NCBI GenBank assembly: GCA_964291295.2
Contig: OZ219756.1
Location: 1-32,130, forward strand
From: an uncultured Candidatus Binatia bacterium
Lineage (GTDB): Bacteria > Desulfobacterota > Binatia > UBA9968 > JAJDTQ01
Reading direction: 5' to 3'
DNA length: 32,130 nucleotides
The position numbers and the translations under genes are program-made. Positions 18,883-25,988 of this stretch are shown here, one piece after another. Positions within the stretch are counted from its first letter, which is position 1, and each line of letters starts with the position of its first letter. The notes under the pieces were generated by a model. The model did not search any database, was not told the DNA's origin, and saw only the letters and a program-made list of their open reading frames with translations.

Positions 18883-19908
18883 CTAGCTTTCGTCCACCCG
18901 GTACACCCGTACCGCCGTGTCGTGGAACATCGCCGCCCGCTCGCTGGCCGAGTAGCCCTTGGACAGCCGCTTGAATGCGTTGTACATCACGTTGTACGAG
19001 TATGACACCTTGTCCACCGGGAAATTGCTCTCAAACATACAGCGGTCGGGCCCAAACTGCTCAATGCAGTAGTGCACCAGCGGCGCCATATCCGCCGCCA
19101 GCTCCTCCGACCCCACCGGGATGGCCCTCTCATGCCAGTCAAAGCCCGTCCGCGGCATCCCGATGCCTCCCAGCTTCACGACCACGTTCGGACACTCCGC
19201 CGCCGCCGCAATGCCCTTGCGCCAGGTCGCCAGCGTCTCCTCGCTGTTGCGGTACGGTCCCACTCGCAGCAGCCCGCCGATGTGGTTCAGAATGATGGTC
19301 AAGTCCGGAACCGCTTTGGCGAACTCCGCCAGCTCCGGCAGCTGCGGGAAATACATCCATCCTTCCAATGTCAGCCCCATGCCGGCCAGCGCCTGCGCGC
19401 CGGCCCGGAAGTTGGCGCTGGACATCTGGTTCGCCATCCGATGCGCTGCCGTATTCTCCACCTCCGGATGCGGATCCCACGTCACCGAGTGCCGGATGCC
19501 CCGGAAGCGGTTGGGGCTGGCCGCCTGCAACGCCTCCAGCACCGGCTTAACGCCGTCTCCCAGGTTCAGGTTCGCGTGCCCGACGATAGACGCCGCCGCC
19601 CGTCCGGGTCCGTACAGCCCGCTGGCCGAAGCCGCCGCCAGTCCCTGCACAAACTCCACCTCGCCCACCGACTGCATCTCCTCCGGCCCGGTAGCGCGAT
19701 ACATGGAACGGGCCTCCACAAAGACCGTCGACGTAACGTTGTGCCCGCTGTTGATGTCCTCGGCCAGCTCGTGGAGCAAATATCTCTGGTAAGGAATCCG
19801 CTCACTGCGATAGTCCCAAAAGTGATGATGCGGGTCGCAAATGGGAATCTCCGGCTCCAGCGTCTCTTCTTGACGGAGCGCGTGCCAGTCATTGCCTCCA
19901 AACGGCAT
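18883..19908 (-). CDS. Amidohydrolase_2 family protein
   Basis: DPHHH metal motif, ILNHIGG, VKLGG, MFESNFPVD; GGAGG SD. Confidence 0.92.
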   Translation of the reverse strand: MPFGGNDWHALRQEETLEPEIPICDPHHHFWDYRSERIPYQRYLLHELAEDINSGHNVTSTVFVEARSMYRATGPEEMQSVGEVEFVQGLAAASASGLYGPGRAAASIVGHANLNLGDGVKPVLEALQAASPNRFRGIRHSVTWDPHPEVENTAAHRMANQMSSANFRAGAQALAGMGLTLEGWMYFPQLPELAEFAKAVPDLTIILNHIGGLLRVGPYRNSEETLATWRKGIAAAAECPNVVVKLGGIGMPRTGFDWHERAIPVGSEELAADMAPLVHYCIEQFGPDRCMFESNFPVDKVSYSYNVMYNAFKRLSKGYSASERAAMFHDTAVRVYRVDES

Positions 19909-20192
19909 AATCAAGCCTCCTGTGTTCCGGGTGTCAGTGTGTCCTCTCCGGGCTATGCTAACTACCGCCGCCGCTTTGCGTCAGCTTTTGAAAACGCCGC
20001 GGAATTCCCTTACGCTGTGCAGAACACGCCCCACAACGCAGAACCCCCACGAACGCCTCCCGATTTTATCACCGAACCCCACCGCCGCATACCCGCCCCT
20101 CGGCCTCCAATCCGAAAACCCCCAGCCAGCCCACAACCCAATCCTGAAAATCCCCAAATCCGGTAAATCCTGATTCTGACAAAAACCTCTGT

Positions 20193-20220
20193 TTGCAAAA
20201 CCGTACCATCGTGCTACAAT
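20193..20220 (+). promoter_or_regulatory. sigma70-type promoter with extended -10
   Basis: TTGCAA (20193-20198), 16 nt, TGcTACAAT ending at 20220. Confidence 0.6.
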
Positions 20221-20329
20221 ATCCCCGTCAGGCTCATCCAACGGCCCCGCGCGAACCGTCGGATACCCGTCCCAGCCCGGTGCACCGGCCAGGACACCGC
20301 CCGACACCACAACTTAATAGGAGTCTCAC

Positions 20330-20573
20330 GGGGTTCGGGATAACACTGTCTAATCCGCCGCATCCGTACTGTGCGGCATGTCGGATCCATTGCACCACTG
20401 TAGGTGCGCCGGAGGTCGGTCACATTACCCGGCTGGCGCACCCAGCACGGCGGGAGTCACCACCGCTGCGCGAGGACGTAATACTGCGTAAGCAGGAAGC
20501 CGTTAGCACGCGCAAGACTAGGACGTAAATAGCAAGCACGCTCTCGGGCCGTAGCGCCGACATCCTGAACCCC
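20330..20573 (+). ncRNA. Putative structured RNA or leader element of unknown class
   Basis: 12-bp closing stem GGGGTTCGGGAT/ATCCTGAACCCC (one G-U) enclosing several hairpins, including GGTGCGCC/GGCGCACC and CTGC-GTAA-GCAG; no credible ORF. Confidence 0.5.
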
Positions 20574-20623
20574 CAGGAACCCAACCAAAATCCACCGACC
20601 GACCAAAAGGAGAGACAATTCCA

Positions 20624-20671
20624 ATGAAAACCACTAAAATCAACCCAACCGACCGCGCCCCGCCGCCCTGA
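20624..20671 (+). CDS. Putative leader peptide MKTTKINPTDRAPPP
   Basis: AAGGAG SD at 20607-20612 in an A/C-rich unstructured stretch; ATG 20624, TGA 20669-20671; RAPP motif at the end. Confidence 0.55.
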   Translation: MKTTKINPTDRAPPP

Positions 20672-20766
20672 AGGAGCTGCCGCACCTGCGCCGCAGCGCA
20701 ACTGAAAGTCCCGGCTCTTTCCTCCTCTGCTCGGCCACGACGCCGGTTAACGGAGGCTCAACCACC

Positions 20767-21846
20767 ATGACCACTGCCGCATCTGCCGTCCGCGCTGCGC
20801 ATCCTTATCGGATGTACGACGCAATCGTCGCGCAGCCCGACGCCGTCGCCTCAGTCATCGCCGGCCAGCGCGACCGCTGCGCTGAGATTGCCGGCGCGCT
20901 GGCCGGCAAACGCCGCATCCATATCGTTGGCATCGGCACCTCCTGGCACGCCGCCCTCGTCGGCGCCGCCGTCATGACCAACGGTCCGGAGGCCTTCGCG
21001 CACAACTCCTTCGAATTCTGCGCCGCTGATCCGCCCGTAACCGCGGACGACGCCGTTATCGTCATCAGCCATCGCGGCACCAAGCGCTCATCCTACGACG
21101 CCCTGGACTGCGCCATCGCCCGCAACGCCTACACCGTTGCCGTCACCTCCACCGACCCCGGCCCCCGCATCCGGGCCGCCGACGCCGGTATCCCAACCGT
21201 CCCCCAGGAAACTTCCGCCGCCTTTACCGTCAGCTACACTACCGCCCTCACCGTCCTGGCCATGCTCAACCTCGGCCTGGCGGAACGCCTCTATGACGCC
21301 GATAACGGACTGCCCGAACTTCCCGGCCAAATTGCCCAAGTCCTGGCCGCGGAGGACGATATAAAGGCCGTCGTCGCCGACCACCGCGACCGGCGCCGCT
21401 TCATCTCCGCCGCTTGGGGCTCCAACCGCGCCAACGCCTACGAAGTTGCCCTCAAAATTAAGGAAACCAGCCGCGCCGACTGCGAAGGTTTCCAGATTGA
21501 GCAGCTGCTTCACGGCCCCTTCTGCTCCCTCGACGCCGACTGCCTGCTGACCATCATCGCCACACCCGGCGACGACCGGGGCCGCGCCCTTGACCTCACC
21601 CGCGCCGCCGCCGCGTTGGGCGCTCCGGTATGGGCGTTGAGCAGCCGCCCCGACGCCGCGCTGTCCGAGGCCGGCGCCCGTGTATTCCCCCTGCCCGACT
21701 GCCCGCCAATGCTGACCCCCATCGCCAGCGTCGTCCCCTTGCAGCTCTTTACCTATCACCTCGCCCTGGCCAGGGGCAAGCGCCCCGACCTGTTCCAGCA
21801 GGACGACCCGCTCCAGGCCGCCGCCCGCGTCCACTACGACCTGTAA
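20767..21846 (+). CDS. Double-SIS-domain sugar-phosphate isomerase/deaminase (GlmS C-terminal-like, no glutaminase domain)
   Basis: GIGTSWHAA, ISHRGT, EVALKIKE, LHGP, VVPLQLF; GGAGG SD. Confidence 0.88.
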   Translation: MTTAASAVRAAHPYRMYDAIVAQPDAVASVIAGQRDRCAEIAGALAGKRRIHIVGIGTSWHAALVGAAVMTNGPEAFAHNSFEFCAADPPVTADDAVIVISHRGTKRSSYDALDCAIARNAYTVAVTSTDPGPRIRAADAGIPTVPQETSAAFTVSYTTALTVLAMLNLGLAERLYDADNGLPELPGQIAQVLAAEDDIKAVVADHRDRRRFISAAWGSNRANAYEVALKIKETSRADCEGFQIEQLLHGPFCSLDADCLLTIIATPGDDRGRALDLTRAAAALGAPVWALSSRPDAALSEAGARVFPLPDCPPMLTPIASVVPLQLFTYHLALARGKRPDLFQQDDPLQAAARVHYDL

Positions 21847-22342: not shown

Positions 22343-23065
22343 ATGACTGCCCAGTCCACCGCCGCCGGCCCCATAGCCCAAAACGGCGCCGCCGCCGACA
22401 CTGAACCCTCCGTAGCCCAAACCCAGGCTGCGGAGACCGGTCGCGCCCGGCACAGCCCCATAGAGTGGGTAGTCGAACCGCACCTGATTGGCAACCGTCT
22501 CCTGGCTATCGGCCGTTCCCGAGGCGGCGCGCGAATCAACAACGTCCTCTCCGATGATGGCACTGCCTTCGACGTTTATCGGGATGGAGTCTCCGACGAA
22601 CTCCCCGGAGAGGTTGTGCTGATCATCGTCCCCAGACGAAATGACGGAATAACCTGGGCCATCGAGACCGAGCAGGGAGTACCCATCATCACCGCCCACG
22701 AATACGATACTTCCGGCGGGCGGTTCATCCTTTACGCCGACACCGCCGACCTCCTGCCCGATGAACGGCGTCATACTCTCCGCGTCTGGGGCGCAATGCC
22801 CGACAGCGGCCCAAGACTGCTTGCCGAACCGGCCATCGGGCGATACGTCCACCGCAGACTGCCGCAAGTATCTTTGGGAAGCGTCATCCGTCGGTGGTTG
22901 GCGGCTCTGTGGCGCCGTTTTCTCTGGCTCGGCATCGTAATGCTGGTACTCATACTCCTGGCCTTGTCCGCCATCGGTGCCGTCGTAGTCATTGACCCCT
23001 CCTGGATGGGCCTGGAGTACATCGAGGAGGTCAACCGCTTCTTCGACTGGCTGCCCTGGCGCTGA
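22343..23065 (+). CDS. Hypothetical protein with a C-terminal membrane anchor
   Basis: AGGAG SD; 240 aa; C-terminal hydrophobic FLWLGIVMLVLILLALSAIGAVVVI. Confidence 0.75.
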   Translation: MTAQSTAAGPIAQNGAAADTEPSVAQTQAAETGRARHSPIEWVVEPHLIGNRLLAIGRSRGGARINNVLSDDGTAFDVYRDGVSDELPGEVVLIIVPRRNDGITWAIETEQGVPIITAHEYDTSGGRFILYADTADLLPDERRHTLRVWGAMPDSGPRLLAEPAIGRYVHRRLPQVSLGSVIRRWLAALWRRFLWLGIVMLVLILLALSAIGAVVVIDPSWMGLEYIEEVNRFFDWLPWR

Positions 23066-23157
23066 CCTCTCCTCCCCTTTCCCGCGCGGTGAGCCTGTCG
23101 CCCCGCCATCGTCAGCCTCTCCTGTCGCCGCCCTTGACTTGGCCCGGCCCTCTCTCG

Positions 23158-23187
23158 TTGACGCTCCTCACAGCCTTACCCTACAAT
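23158..23187 (+). promoter_or_regulatory. Promoter of alaS
   Basis: TTGACG, 18 nt, TACAAT. Confidence 0.55.
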
Positions 23188-23246
23188 CAAATGCGTTCCC
23201 CGCAAAACTCAATTCTCCAATCCACTCCACCGGAGCCGTGACCCCT

Positions 23247-25988
23247 ATGGACACCGCCGGCGATAGCATCCGCAGCGCTTTCATCGACTTCTTCCGGCAG
23301 CGCGGCCATCTCCCCATGCCTTCCGCATCCCTCATCCCCGCCGGCGACCCTACCCTCCTTTTCACATCTGCCGGCATGGTTCCCTTCAAGCCCTTCTTCA
23401 TGGGCGAGCAGACCCCGCCCCGCCGCCGCCTCACCAGCTGCCAGAAATCCTTTCGCACCACCGACATCGACGAAGTCGGCGACCACAAGCACCTCACCTT
23501 CTTCGAGATGCTGGGCAACTTCAGCATCGGCGACTACTTCAAGCAGGACGCCGCCGCCTTCGCCTGGGAACTCTGCACCGGCCTCTTCAGCCTGCCGCCG
23601 GAGCGTATGTACGTTACCGTCCATCTTGACGACGACGAAGCCTACGACATCTGGCGCAACGAAATCGGCATCCCGCCCCATCGCATCTATCGCTACGGCA
23701 ACAGCGACAACTGGTGGGGGCCGGCCGGACTGGAAGGCCCTACCGGCCCCTGCTCCGAACTCCACTACGACGGCGGCGCCGAGAAAGGCATCGGCCAGCA
23801 CCGCCTTACCGACGAGCTGATGACGCCCGACGACCTCACCGCCATGCTCCGCATCGAGGCGGATGGCGGCCCCGTCGCCGCGCCCGGCGGCTGCCATCCC
23901 AACTGCGATTGCGAGCGCTTCGTCGAACTGTGGAACCTGGTCTTCATGCAGTACTACCAGGACTTGCAGGGCGTCCGTACTCCGCTGCCCGCTCCCAGCG
24001 TGGACACCGGCATGGGCCTGGAACGCGCCGCCGCCGTGCTGCAAAACAAGCCCAACGTCTATGAAACCGACCTCTTCCGTCCCATCATCAACGCCGTGTG
24101 CCAACTGGCCGGCTGCGAATACGGCGCAGACGGCGATACCGACTACGCCATCCGCGTCGTCGCCGAGCACGCCCGCGCCGCATCCGTCCTCATCAGCGAC
24201 GGCGTGGTGCCGTCCAACAGCGAGCGCGGCTACGTGCTGCGACGCATCATCCGCCGCGCCATTCGCTACGGCCGGCAGCTCGGCCTCGACCGCCCCTTCA
24301 TGACCGAAGTCGCCGACGCCGTGATACATAGATTCGCCGCAGCATACCCCGCCCTCTCCGAAAACCGCGATTTCATCCGCCGCGTCGTCGGGCTGGAAGA
24401 AGCCCAATTCCTGGACAATATCCGCCAGGGTATGCCCTTGCTGGAAGAACGCCTGGCATCATCCCGCGCCGCCGGCGTCATCGCCGGCCACGTAGCCTTC
24501 GAACTCTACGACACCTACGGCTTCCCTCCGGAACTCGTGGATGAAATCGGACGCCGCGAGTACGGCCTCGCCGTAGATATGGACGGCTTCAACGCCGCAA
24601 TGGCCGCCAAGCGCCAGCGCGACCGCGCCGGCCATCAGGTAACCGGCAGCATGGAAATCGTTACCGCTTACGAAAACCTCGGCGCCGGACACACTCCCTT
24701 CATCGGCTACCGGCAGACCGCTGTCCCGGCCCGCATCCTCGGCATCCTGCGCGATGGCGAAGCCGTGGGCCACGCCGCCGCCGGCCAGCCGGTCGAAATC
24801 GTCCTCTCCGAAACCTGCTTCTACGCCGAGGCCGGCGGGCAGGTTGGCGACAGTGGCGTCATCATCGGCCCCAACGGGCGCGTCCAGGTAGCCGACACCC
24901 ATAGCCCTGTCGCCGGCCTCATCGTCCATCGCGGCAAGGTTGCCGACGGCGACGTCACCTTGGGCGACGTCGTAACCGCCCAGGTCGCCGCCGAGCGCCG
25001 CCTGGACGCCTCCCGCAATCACAGCGGAACCCATCTGCTCCACGCCGCCCTGCGTTCCGTCCTCGGCCCCCATGTCCGCCAGGCCGGTTCCCTGTGCGCC
25101 CCCGGCCGGCTGCGCTTCGATTTCAACCACGTCGGCGCAATGACGCCCGACGAACAGATCTCCGTGCAGAGCCTGGCCAATCGCCAAATCCGCGCCAACC
25201 TGGCCGTCACCGCCCAGGAAACCACCTACGCCGACGCCGTGCGCGACGGCGCGCTGGCCTTCTTCGGCGACCGCTACGGCGACGTGGTGCGCGTGGTCAA
25301 AATGGCCGGACATTCCGATGATCCTAACCCCTTCAGCTTTGAAGTCTGCGGCGGCACTCACGTCCACGCCACCGGCGAATTGGGCGCCTTGGTCGTGCTG
25401 GGCGAGTCCAGCATCGGCGGCGGTATGCGCCGCATCGAGGCTATGACCGGCCGCGCCGCCGAGGAACTGTTCACGCAGCAGTCCGCCACCCTGCAAGCCA
25501 TCGCGCAGAAACTGCAAGCCCCCGTCCACGAACTGGAAGCCCGCCTGGACGCCTACATCGCCGACGCCGACGCCCTCCGCCGACGCCTGGCCGAAACGGA
25601 ACGCGCCAGCCTGCGCGCCGAAGCCGAATCCCTGCTGGCCCGCGTCCGCGATGTGGACGGCGTAAATCTGGTAGCGTCCGTAACCTCCGCCCACAGCCCG
25701 GAGGCCATGCGCGAAATGGGCGACTACCTGAAGCAGAAACTTGACAGCGTGGCCGTAGCCCTGGGCGCCGTCAGCGACGGTTCTCCCATCATCATAACCA
25801 TGCTCACCCCCGACCTGGTAAGTCGCGGCCTCCACGCCGGCAACATCGCCCGGGACGCCGCCAAACTCATGGGCGGCGGCGGCGGCGGACGTCCCGAAAC
25901 CGCCCAGGCCGGCGGTCGCCAGCCCGACCGCCTCGGCGCCGCCCTGGACAGCGTAGCCGGCCTCATCCGTGCCGTATTGCAAAGCTAA
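23247..25988 (+). CDS. alaS: Alanine-tRNA ligase (start ATG 23247 or GTG 23238)
   Basis: DPTLLFTSAGM, HLTFFEMLGNFS, ELWNLVFMQ, DTGMGLER, HSGTH and CGGTH editing motifs, GGGGGG in the C-Ala domain. Confidence 0.98.
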   Translation: MDTAGDSIRSAFIDFFRQRGHLPMPSASLIPAGDPTLLFTSAGMVPFKPFFMGEQTPPRRRLTSCQKSFRTTDIDEVGDHKHLTFFEMLGNFSIGDYFKQDAAAFAWELCTGLFSLPPERMYVTVHLDDDEAYDIWRNEIGIPPHRIYRYGNSDNWWGPAGLEGPTGPCSELHYDGGAEKGIGQHRLTDELMTPDDLTAMLRIEADGGPVAAPGGCHPNCDCERFVELWNLVFMQYYQDLQGVRTPLPAPSVDTGMGLERAAAVLQNKPNVYETDLFRPIINAVCQLAGCEYGADGDTDYAIRVVAEHARAASVLISDGVVPSNSERGYVLRRIIRRAIRYGRQLGLDRPFMTEVADAVIHRFAAAYPALSENRDFIRRVVGLEEAQFLDNIRQGMPLLEERLASSRAAGVIAGHVAFELYDTYGFPPELVDEIGRREYGLAVDMDGFNAAMAAKRQRDRAGHQVTGSMEIVTAYENLGAGHTPFIGYRQTAVPARILGILRDGEAVGHAAAGQPVEIVLSETCFYAEAGGQVGDSGVIIGPNGRVQVADTHSPVAGLIVHRGKVADGDVTLGDVVTAQVAAERRLDASRNHSGTHLLHAALRSVLGPHVRQAGSLCAPGRLRFDFNHVGAMTPDEQISVQSLANRQIRANLAVTAQETTYADAVRDGALAFFGDRYGDVVRVVKMAGHSDDPNPFSFEVCGGTHVHATGELGALVVLGESSIGGGMRRIEAMTGRAAEELFTQQSATLQAIAQKLQAPVHELEARLDAYIADADALRRRLAETERASLRAEAESLLARVRDVDGVNLVASVTSAHSPEAMREMGDYLKQKLDSVAVALGAVSDGSPIIITMLTPDLVSRGLHAGNIARDAAKLMGGGGGGRPETAQAGGRQPDRLGAALDSVAGLIRAVLQS

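Follow-up and report, generated by a model that had tools for sequence, protein, structure and literature searches.

The sequence analysed here, referred to throughout as the window, is a whole contig of 32,130 nucleotides (nt) (the 32-kb contig C3) filed under bin G000, an uncultured Candidatus Binatia bacterium. Between its amidohydrolase gene and a gene for a SIS-domain protein (SIS; 20767–21846), which is followed by orf338 and alaS (22992–25988), lies a stretch of 244 nt that a preliminary description, made from the letters alone, had singled out as a candidate structured RNA. Comparison with related genomes identifies this stretch as the core of a transcription unit that is present in many copies in an uncultivated Dehalococcoidia clade, the window holding a 'solo' copy, and the RNA that it would specify as a new, conserved, multi-copy structured family with its own promoter. 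Each unit, ~0.53 kb in size, consists in order of a 42-nt A-tract motif, a sigma-70 promoter, a 5′ hairpin, the RNA core, a CA-rich linker and a Shine-Dalgarno sequence, and it has one of two endings: a gene for a HEPN-like protein in the L form or, in the S form to which the window copy belongs, a mini-open reading frame (mini-ORF). The features of the window copy are collected in Table 1.

Table 1. Features of the window copy of the unit and of the DNA on either side of it.
Feature	Position	Strand	Basis or remark
C-rich, G-poor DNA, upstream end of the ~790-bp insert	19961..20140	+	missing in the short-gap relatives L005, L006 and L051
42-nt A-tract / AAATCC-periodic motif, ATCCTGAAAATCC..AAATCC..TAAATCCTGATTCTGACAA	20141..20182	+	just 5′ of the promoter
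Sigma-70-type promoter (TTGCAA, 16 nt, TG, TACAAT)	20193..20220	+	consensus scan, 9/12 matches plus TG
5′-terminal hairpin of the inferred transcript, GUC.GGC ... GCC.GAC	20227..20305	+	predicted in the window and in the 41-copy alignment
Conserved structured RNA core	20330..20573	+	model R1, score 283 bits
P1	20330-20340 with 20563-20573	+	model R1 mapped to the window
P2	20345-20351 with 20546-20552	+	model R1 mapped to the window
P3	20357-20363 with 20371-20377	+	model R1 mapped to the window
Long hairpin	20398-20445	+	model R1 mapped to the window
Small invariant hairpin	20448-20465	+	model R1 mapped to the window
Variable-length hairpin	20467-20514	+	model R1 mapped to the window
CA-rich, G-poor unstructured linker	20574..20605	+	GC skew −0.44
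Shine-Dalgarno sequence AAAGGAGAG	20606..20614	+	11 nt before the ATG
Mini-ORF MKTTKINPTDRAPPP*	20624..20671	+	R-A-P-P codons at 20654-20665
3′ tail of the insert	20672..20749	+	common to few copies; L074, L078, L079 and L082 reach query positions 717-768

Contig C3 is probably misbinned and not derived from the rest of bin G000. Contig C1 of this bin carries an alaS of its own, 42% identical to the alaS of C3; the GC content is 63.7% for C3 compared to 66.2% for C1; and an orthologue of the SIS gene is absent, at E ≤ 1e-40, from all 27 genomes of the bin's genus. The gene order amidohydrolase, SIS, orf338, alaS was found at 55 loci, all of them in uncultivated Dehalococcoidia, and the closest of these syntenic loci (L004, in genome G044) is 98.4% identical to the window across 7 kb. 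With a gene identity of ~99%, G044 is, as judged from these comparisons, the closest true relative of the contig. Within G000 the stretch was found in a single copy, the window's own, by BLAST, by nhmmer and by R1, a covariance model derived from 40 distinct core sequences, and a DNA search of 40 relatives of G000 yielded no copy. This single-copy status was dropped, since C1 has its own alaS and the bin is probably not the true host: because the window contig probably does not come from that bin, the relatives of G000 are the wrong ones to search, and the probable misbinning means that a copy-number test on G000 gives the wrong answer. The practical warning is that such a test misleads when it is run in a bin with a misbinned contig.

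In G044, at least 40 places match window positions ~20131–20666 at 81–92% identity (query, window 19970–20740; 40 of 194 candidates scored), and these 40, fetched and aligned with the window, form the set of 41 copies used below. Among 34 solo units the mean pairwise identity is 95.5% in the core and 94.5% in the A-tract motif, compared to 81% in the leader, 80% in the linker and 72% in the promoter; on these alignments the flagged 244-nt stretch is the best-conserved portion of the unit. A survey of 81 relatives of G044 gave R1 matches in 28, with at least 25 copies in G044, at least 24 in G056, at least 20 in G083 and at least 15 in G071, these counts being lower bounds because scoring stopped at 25 candidates in each genome. 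Full-length R1 matches (47–152 bits, 230–377 nt) were obtained for every one of the first 28 loci taken from other genomes and also for all 40 further loci, and the core of the unit is 250–380 nt long. One metagenome contig that matched the 3′ core pattern scored 118 bits with R1; the 13 viral contigs matching the core pattern had no real R1 match, the best being partial and at 14.3 bits.

The RNA matches no Rfam family. A scan of the whole window with Rfam 15 (4227 models) gave zero matches at gathering thresholds and, with E up to 10 in 19850–20850, the sole core-overlapping match was a minus-strand one to mir-587 (15.2 bits; gathering score 80). The preliminary description had not matched the stretch to glmS, cobalamin, T-box, tmRNA, RNase P or SRP. 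Nor was the family described in the full-text literature searched, supplements aside.

The features from which a structured RNA had been proposed are present. The 12-bp terminal stem, in which GGGGTTCGGGAT (20330–20341) pairs with ATCCTGAACCCC (20562–20573) with one G-U pair at 20337/20566, encloses the hairpins that had been named, and AGGACGTAA occurs at 20473–20481 and again at 20520–20528. The upstream promoter (TTGCAA at 20193–20198 and TACAAT at 20215–20220) is also there, its −10 box ending 110 nt before the stem, and the C-skew of the surroundings is lost inside the stretch, with a GC skew of ~−0.5 in both flanks and ~+0.08 in the core. On the plus strand the minimum free energy is −99.4 kcal/mol (z −1.81; 7 of 200 shuffles fold as well), and on the minus strand the fold has a z of −1.49. 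Single-sequence fold energy is not convincing by itself; the comparative evidence is strong.

This evidence comes from 84 sequences: the window, 18 of the 40 G044 copies and 65 copies from 21 other genomes, with 22 redundant G044 copies and three copies cut by contig ends left out. In this set 92.1% of the paired cells hold a pair, compared to 29–41% when the partners are slid, and 44 of the 70 pairs change on both sides, a number that averages 30.9 in shuffled alignments and was reached in none of 500 shuffles. The covariation score is 0.238, as against 0.106 for shuffled and 0.011–0.043 for slid partners. Changes on both sides were found in 7 of the 11 pairs of the terminal stem, in all 7 pairs of GCCGCAU/GUGCGGC, in 10 of the 11 pairs of the GGTGCGCC/GGCGCACC hairpin and in 4 of the 7 pairs of UGCGCG/CGCGCA. 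A model-independent MAFFT alignment of 23 sequences, folded with RNAalifold, recovered the closing stem, the base and tip of the long hairpin, the small invariant hairpin and UGCGCG/CGCGCA, with 16 of 34 pairs compensatory. Length variation and insertions are confined to the hairpin tips, and many unpaired bases of the core are invariant, several of them in runs. Altogether, homologues and covariation bear out the proposal of a new structured RNA, and the RNA fold is real and conserved.

Individual parts of the earlier fold fared less well. Its ATCCG/CGGAT extension has uncompensated breaks in 6 of the 41 copies, only 4 of the 41 have the first AGGACGTAA, and the GNRA-capped hairpin lies in the variable-length region, where its GTAA loop varies. 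For the suggested switch by alternative pairing of ATGTCGG with CCGACAT, the two outer pairs are not conserved and the inner part is kept: GUCGG (20380–20384) is complementary to CCGAC (20557–20561), and both are invariant in 82 to 84 of the 84 sequences. These two segments could form a pseudoknot across P2; as they never vary, covariation gives no test of their pairing. The window copy itself is slightly degraded, scoring 283 bits compared to ~310 for the best G044 copies, and its P2 has a T-C mismatch (20347/20550) where 40 of the 41 copies have G-C. A protein-coding core was considered and excluded, because copies in the 41-copy alignment differ by one-base insertions or deletions.

The extent of conservation within G044 could also have a trivial origin, in which the stems are by-products of recently amplified, non-functional selfish DNA and the conservation reflects youth or gene conversion. 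The G044 cores are indeed 95% identical, and between the window and L004 the core diverges like the rest of the spacer: 15 of 244 positions differ (6.1%), compared to 7.2% in the rest of the spacer and 0.6–0.8% in the flanking genes, the core diverging at about eight times the flanking-gene rate. But in diverged copies (47–152 bits) from 21 other genomes the helices are preserved by compensatory changes, conservation within one and the same unit is far higher in the core than in promoter, leader and linker, and insertions are restricted to hairpin tips. The four L004 changes that fall on modelled pairs point the same way: two leave a pair in place (G-U to A-U in P1; G-C to G-U in the long hairpin), one re-forms in P2 the pair broken in the window and one breaks a G-C in the variable hairpin, with the remaining core changes in unpaired or variable parts. 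Such a repeat is already disfavoured and we regard it as very improbable.

Outside the core, a promoter of the form TTGC..(17)..TAcAaT stands at the equivalent position in the G044 copies and in other genomes, as three sequence variants among the 41 aligned copies, and transcription would start near G20227. The leader is ~100 nt long. Its 5′ hairpin is not significant by energy alone in the window (z −0.56), and its closing strands GUCAGGC and GCCCGAC recur in other genomes. A CA-rich linker, 30 to ~190 nt in length, follows the core in all copies, and AAGGAG-like sequences lie 3′ of it in most copies and in all genomes examined. In some G044 copies the A-tract motif forms tandem arrays 5′ of the promoter with periods of 109 and 135 nt (7.8 × 109 nt at 98% matches in L066:719–1566; 4.4 × 135 nt in L098:1095–1680), and it is also present 3′ of L-form units, which it flanks on both sides. 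Of the 19970–20740 query, positions 14–130 match DNA beside other G044 copies at 71–77% identity. Within this upstream C-rich DNA, GAACCCCCACGAAC at 20041–20054 repeats the 3′ end of the core and the start of the linker (20567–20580) at 13 of 14 bases, and the C-rich DNA may be what is left of another unit's linker. The 3′ tail has an unremarkable fold (z +0.38).

The L-form copies lead into a gene for a protein of 230–420 residues with a HEPN-fold N-terminal domain. It has 102 homologues, of which the few that are named are all hypothetical Chloroflexi proteins and none has a Pfam domain; Pfam gave no family for the protein of L098 at E ≤ 1 or for P0001 at E ≤ 0.01. A predicted model of the protein (predicted local distance difference test, pLDDT, 91) has the four- to five-helix HEPN fold in residues 1–130, with structure matches to 2hsb (VIA Z 16.4; root-mean-square deviation 2.7 Å over 121 residues), 1wol (VIA Z 14.2) and 1ufb (VIA Z 13.4), the top six rows being all HEPN; Foldseek likewise returned a HEPN match (E 8e-3; template-modelling score, TM(target), 0.81). 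Invariant His and Arg residues other than those of the canonical HEPN motif are present. The C-terminal ~110 residues contain invariant D-P-H and C-x-C-H and gave no usable atlas-feature match, all structure rows having TM < 0.5; a model of this domain alone is poor (pLDDT 67), and the rows of the wide structure search cover residues 1–130 only. Seven G044 units encode a protein of 274–419 residues with an internal array of 19-residue repeats, the length varying because the number of ~19-residue repeats varies. These repeats, in the proteins of L087, L088, L092–L094, L097 and L098, lie between the domains and are rich in T, H, N, D, R and Q.

The RNA lies directly upstream of the full-length gene, on the same strand, in 11 of 11 cases in G044, 3 of 3 in G067, 2 of 2 in G047 and 1 of 1 in G069. 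The full-length protein is encoded in 24 of the 28 RNA-positive genomes, and in G051 and G081 a HEPN-only gene comes right after the RNA; no RNA was found upstream of six HEPN-only homologues (G067, G069, G047). Gene order across these genomes identifies a constant link between the RNA and the HEPN-like gene. A separate case is L173 (G083), where the RNA 5′ of the HEPN-like gene appears to be split by a ~200-nt insertion in the variable hairpin and has no recognisable closing stem.

The reading that we favour, tentatively and at somewhat less than even confidence, makes the RNA a partner of the HEPN-like protein, or its regulator, with the window holding a solo copy. The RNA would be the cognate partner of the protein, acting both in cis, where it leads the protein's mRNA, and in trans, where it would come from the solo copies, which are in the majority; it might bind or titrate the protein or be cut by it, and so serve as an antidote or feedback RNA, as in the abiF/AbiF and type III pairs. 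The abiF motif is among the Rfam models, and its covariance model gave no match here. In Clostridioides difficile the abiF-motif RNA RCd22 is reported to act in cis and in trans and to neutralise AbiF, an Abi_2/HEPN protein, by direct binding (PMC12373285), and the arrangement resembles ours in having a structured RNA directly 5′ of a co-oriented HEPN-fold gene. Several differences set the two apart. The HEPN-like protein lacks an Abi_2 (AbiD/F) or other Pfam match and shares with AbiF only the general HEPN fold; the RNA is a single multi-helix junction of 250–380 nt, unlike the two short motifs of abiF RNA; and there are tens of RNA copies per genome, most without the protein, a RAPP mini-ORF and no presence on the viral contigs examined. 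Type III antitoxin RNAs are tandem repeats of ~36 nt that are processed by the toxin, and to our knowledge the type III toxins are not HEPN proteins; the RNA transcribed here is, in contrast, non-repetitive, the 109/135-nt arrays being 5′ of the promoter. Shared with type III systems such as ToxIN and CptIN (PMC4627078) are an RNA gene 5′ of the protein gene, an RNA in excess and a presumed restraint of the protein by the RNA.

In the S form, the linker and Shine-Dalgarno sequence lead instead to a short frame. A start codon follows the Shine-Dalgarno sequence in 39 of the 41 units, seven of the L form and thirty-two of the S form, and among the latter (G044 and the window) R-[AGPDS]-P-P occurs within the first 25 residues in 31 of 32 mini-ORFs and RAPP itself in 26 of 32, the window frame ending in ...DRAPPP*. 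These frames run for 12–20 codons, with 7–13 mostly polar residues before the motif, and R-A-P-P (or R-P-P-P), at the 3′ edge of the unit, are their sole conserved residues: similarity between copies stops exactly after the RAPP codons, and the next codon takes 16 different forms. The motif is encoded variably, with Arg as CGC (27), AGG (2), CGA (1) or CGG (1), Ala as GCC (15) or GCG (11) and Pro by all four of its codons. As the residues are constant while their codons vary, selection is on the peptide and not on the DNA. The two endings also occur in G056, where the RNA has diverged far (about 60 bits): the 12 copies taken from it are divided evenly between a frame M..LPPTARPPP (6) and the protein (6); no RAPP-type frame was present in 12 copies fetched from G083.

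RAPP is reported to arrest the ribosome robustly, without relief by EF-P, and to be a motif that bacterial proteomes avoid (PMC12992588). By analogy, the window mini-ORF probably stalls the ribosome. It resembles arrest peptides of this type, such as ApdA and ApdP (PMC12992588, PMC10951233 and PMC7897499), in being a small upstream ORF that ends in Arg-Ala-Pro-Pro with the motif under peptide-level selection. These peptides typically have a secretory or membrane-targeting N-terminal part (PMC12992588), unlike the frames here, which have about 10 residues before RAPP and no hydrophobic or secretion segment. And whereas known RAPP frames regulate one defined downstream gene, the frame here is the 3′ edge of a repeat unit with arbitrary sequence after it. 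In solo copies a ribosome might load at the linker and Shine-Dalgarno sequence and be parked at RAPP, where its presence could protect or stabilise the RNA and keep translation uncoupled from the sequence downstream. That the whole would be an RNA-ribosome module, a structured RNA held on a RAPP-arrested ribosome and repeated through the genome as an antidote pool or sensor for HEPN-type RNases, is conceivable but unlikely.

A number of observations weigh against a partnership with the HEPN-like protein. The protein matched no Pfam, PADLOC or NCBIfam family, and the canonical Rx4-6H motif of HEPN domains is not clearly kept, most members having RRAASH (R-x4-H) and the G044 copies ARCISH (R-x3-H). 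RNA copies outnumber protein genes by ~4:1 in G044; G061 has the RNA and no protein match at E ≤ 1e-20; 13 of the 81 G044 relatives have the protein and no R1 match; and upstream of five genes of the diverged G083 subfamily the R1 matches are weak or split (37, 19, 19, 9 and 9 bits). On the side of the fold, copies within a genome are paralogues and not independent, and the alignments concerned (A3 and A5) were fitted to the model. The RNA also stands directly 5′ of unrelated genes, those for an APS kinase (L103, 45 nt after the core), an M20 peptidase (L109, 78 nt after the core) and an aminotransferase (L197). Finally, 24 of 33 solo copies point to a co-oriented next gene, by a rough gene call that is based on GC content at third codon positions (GC3) and is wrong for at least L059.

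The last two points also fit the main rival, in which the unit is a portable cis-acting expression leader: a promoter, a structured 5′ untranslated region and a ribosome loading site that spread by duplication and control or stabilise whichever frame follows. In this case the core would sense a ligand or factor or stabilise the 5′ end, and the RAPP frame would add a second, translation-coupled control, with SIS reached by read-through. In its favour, promoter, 5′ hairpin, linker and Shine-Dalgarno sequence are kept in all copies, and the genes that follow differ. What looks like the same M20-family peptidase gene follows the RNA in three genomes (L107, L109 and L125; assigned by Pfam in L109 and by sequence likeness in the others), which indicates that some solo copies are kept at orthologous places. 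Against it, the downstream genes have no common function, unlike those of a riboswitch; many solo copies are followed by apparent −35 and −10 boxes of the next gene; no expression platform is visible in the form of a terminator or anti-Shine-Dalgarno pairing; and it offers no reason for the tight link to a single protein family. We consider the portable leader rather doubtful, though it is the strongest competitor of the RNA–protein partnership.

The window locus itself bears on this leader. Relatives L005, L006 and L051 have an empty gap of 107–181 nt between the amidohydrolase and SIS genes, and homology with L006 stops near 19960 and resumes near 20750, which gives an insert of ~790 bp by which the ancestral upstream region of SIS was displaced. 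No terminator-like site was found in 19800–20900, hence none before SIS, and the promoter of the unit, which would have been inserted between the two genes and is co-oriented with SIS, probably now reads into it. The amidohydrolase/SIS site is, to judge from the syntenic loci, a hot spot for gain and loss. Many relatives (L007–L023; for example L009:2273–2866, minus strand) have at this site a gene for a 198-residue Uma2-family endonuclease (PF05685, E 2.5e-26). That the window spacer is a decayed Uma2 gene was considered and rejected, tblastn matches being weak and inconsistent (best E 0.005 against an 852-nt target).

The cis-regulatory RNA or ribozyme of the preliminary description, which pointed to glucosamine 6-phosphate and related sugars, could have this neighbour as its target and would then adjust SIS expression to the level of an amino sugar. 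The RNA is indeed 5′ of the SIS-domain gene and co-oriented with it, but among the 55 syntenic amidohydrolase-SIS loci one, the near-identical relative L004, has the RNA. Elsewhere the RNA precedes unrelated genes, at least 40 copies are present in G044, and neither glmS nor any other Rfam model matched. Amino-sugar control is therefore refuted as a general rule and is exceedingly improbable as the role of the RNA; a local effect on SIS by read-through is possible.

An own conserved promoter with a 5′ hairpin, together with many invariant unpaired bases typical of ribonucleoprotein (RNP) or tertiary contacts, would suit a family of genes for a trans-acting small RNA or RNP with a cellular role unrelated to its neighbours, the ORFs that follow being incidental. 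This account is improbable: the linker, Shine-Dalgarno sequence and RAPP codons are under selection, which makes translation after the RNA part of the design, and the link to the HEPN-like gene is constant.

The dispersal of the units brings in a further possibility, that the RNA is a component of a new mobile element in which the HEPN-like protein, or its C-terminal domain, is the enzyme and the solo copies are non-autonomous, the RNA guiding or aiding the unit's movement in the manner of omega, bridge or group II intron RNAs. Consistent with it are the many copies, a site that among relatives holds the insert, nothing or a Uma2 gene, L-form units flanked on both sides by the A-tract repeat, and a C-terminal domain with invariant D-P-H and C-x-C-H and no known fold. 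Scans of Pfam, PADLOC and NCBIfam, however, found no family of transposases, recombinases, reverse transcriptases or nucleases; the ends of 19940–20770 lack terminal inverted repeats, and a target duplication is not definable, as the insert edges are too diverged from L006; none of the 13 pattern-matching viral contigs holds a copy; and the promoter has been copied along although it is outside the transcript, so that spread is at the DNA level. We judge an RNA-assisted mobile element to be decidedly improbable.

Miniature inverted-repeat transposable elements (MITEs), repetitive extragenic palindromic (REP) sequences and REPINs, and Correia elements are short intergenic repeats present in tens of copies, some with promoters. 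The units are similar in their tens of intergenic copies and in their presence or absence at orthologous sites, but differ in having no terminal inverted repeats, a 250-nt fold kept by compensatory changes and a constant link to a protein family. A miniature inverted-repeat element had been the earlier alternative for the window stretch; its repetitive nature holds, with at least 40 copies in G044, and its inverted repeats do not. With its own promoter and a core far more constant than its flanks, the unit is not a plain MITE.

It is rare for a large structured bacterial RNA to show strong covariation and yet have no assigned function, and RNAs of this kind have repeatedly opened the way to new biochemistry. 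The one described here is unusual in combining a length of 250–380 nt and many invariant unpaired bases with tens of copies per genome, a link to a HEPN-like protein and a solo form that ends in RAPP. Should the RNA prove to be an antidote or regulator of this protein, HEPN systems under RNA control would be known from a further phylum and with a new RNA architecture. Should the arrest frame serve the RNA, programmed ribosome stalling would have a new use, and this would be the first arrest peptide to work for a non-coding RNA instead of a downstream gene.

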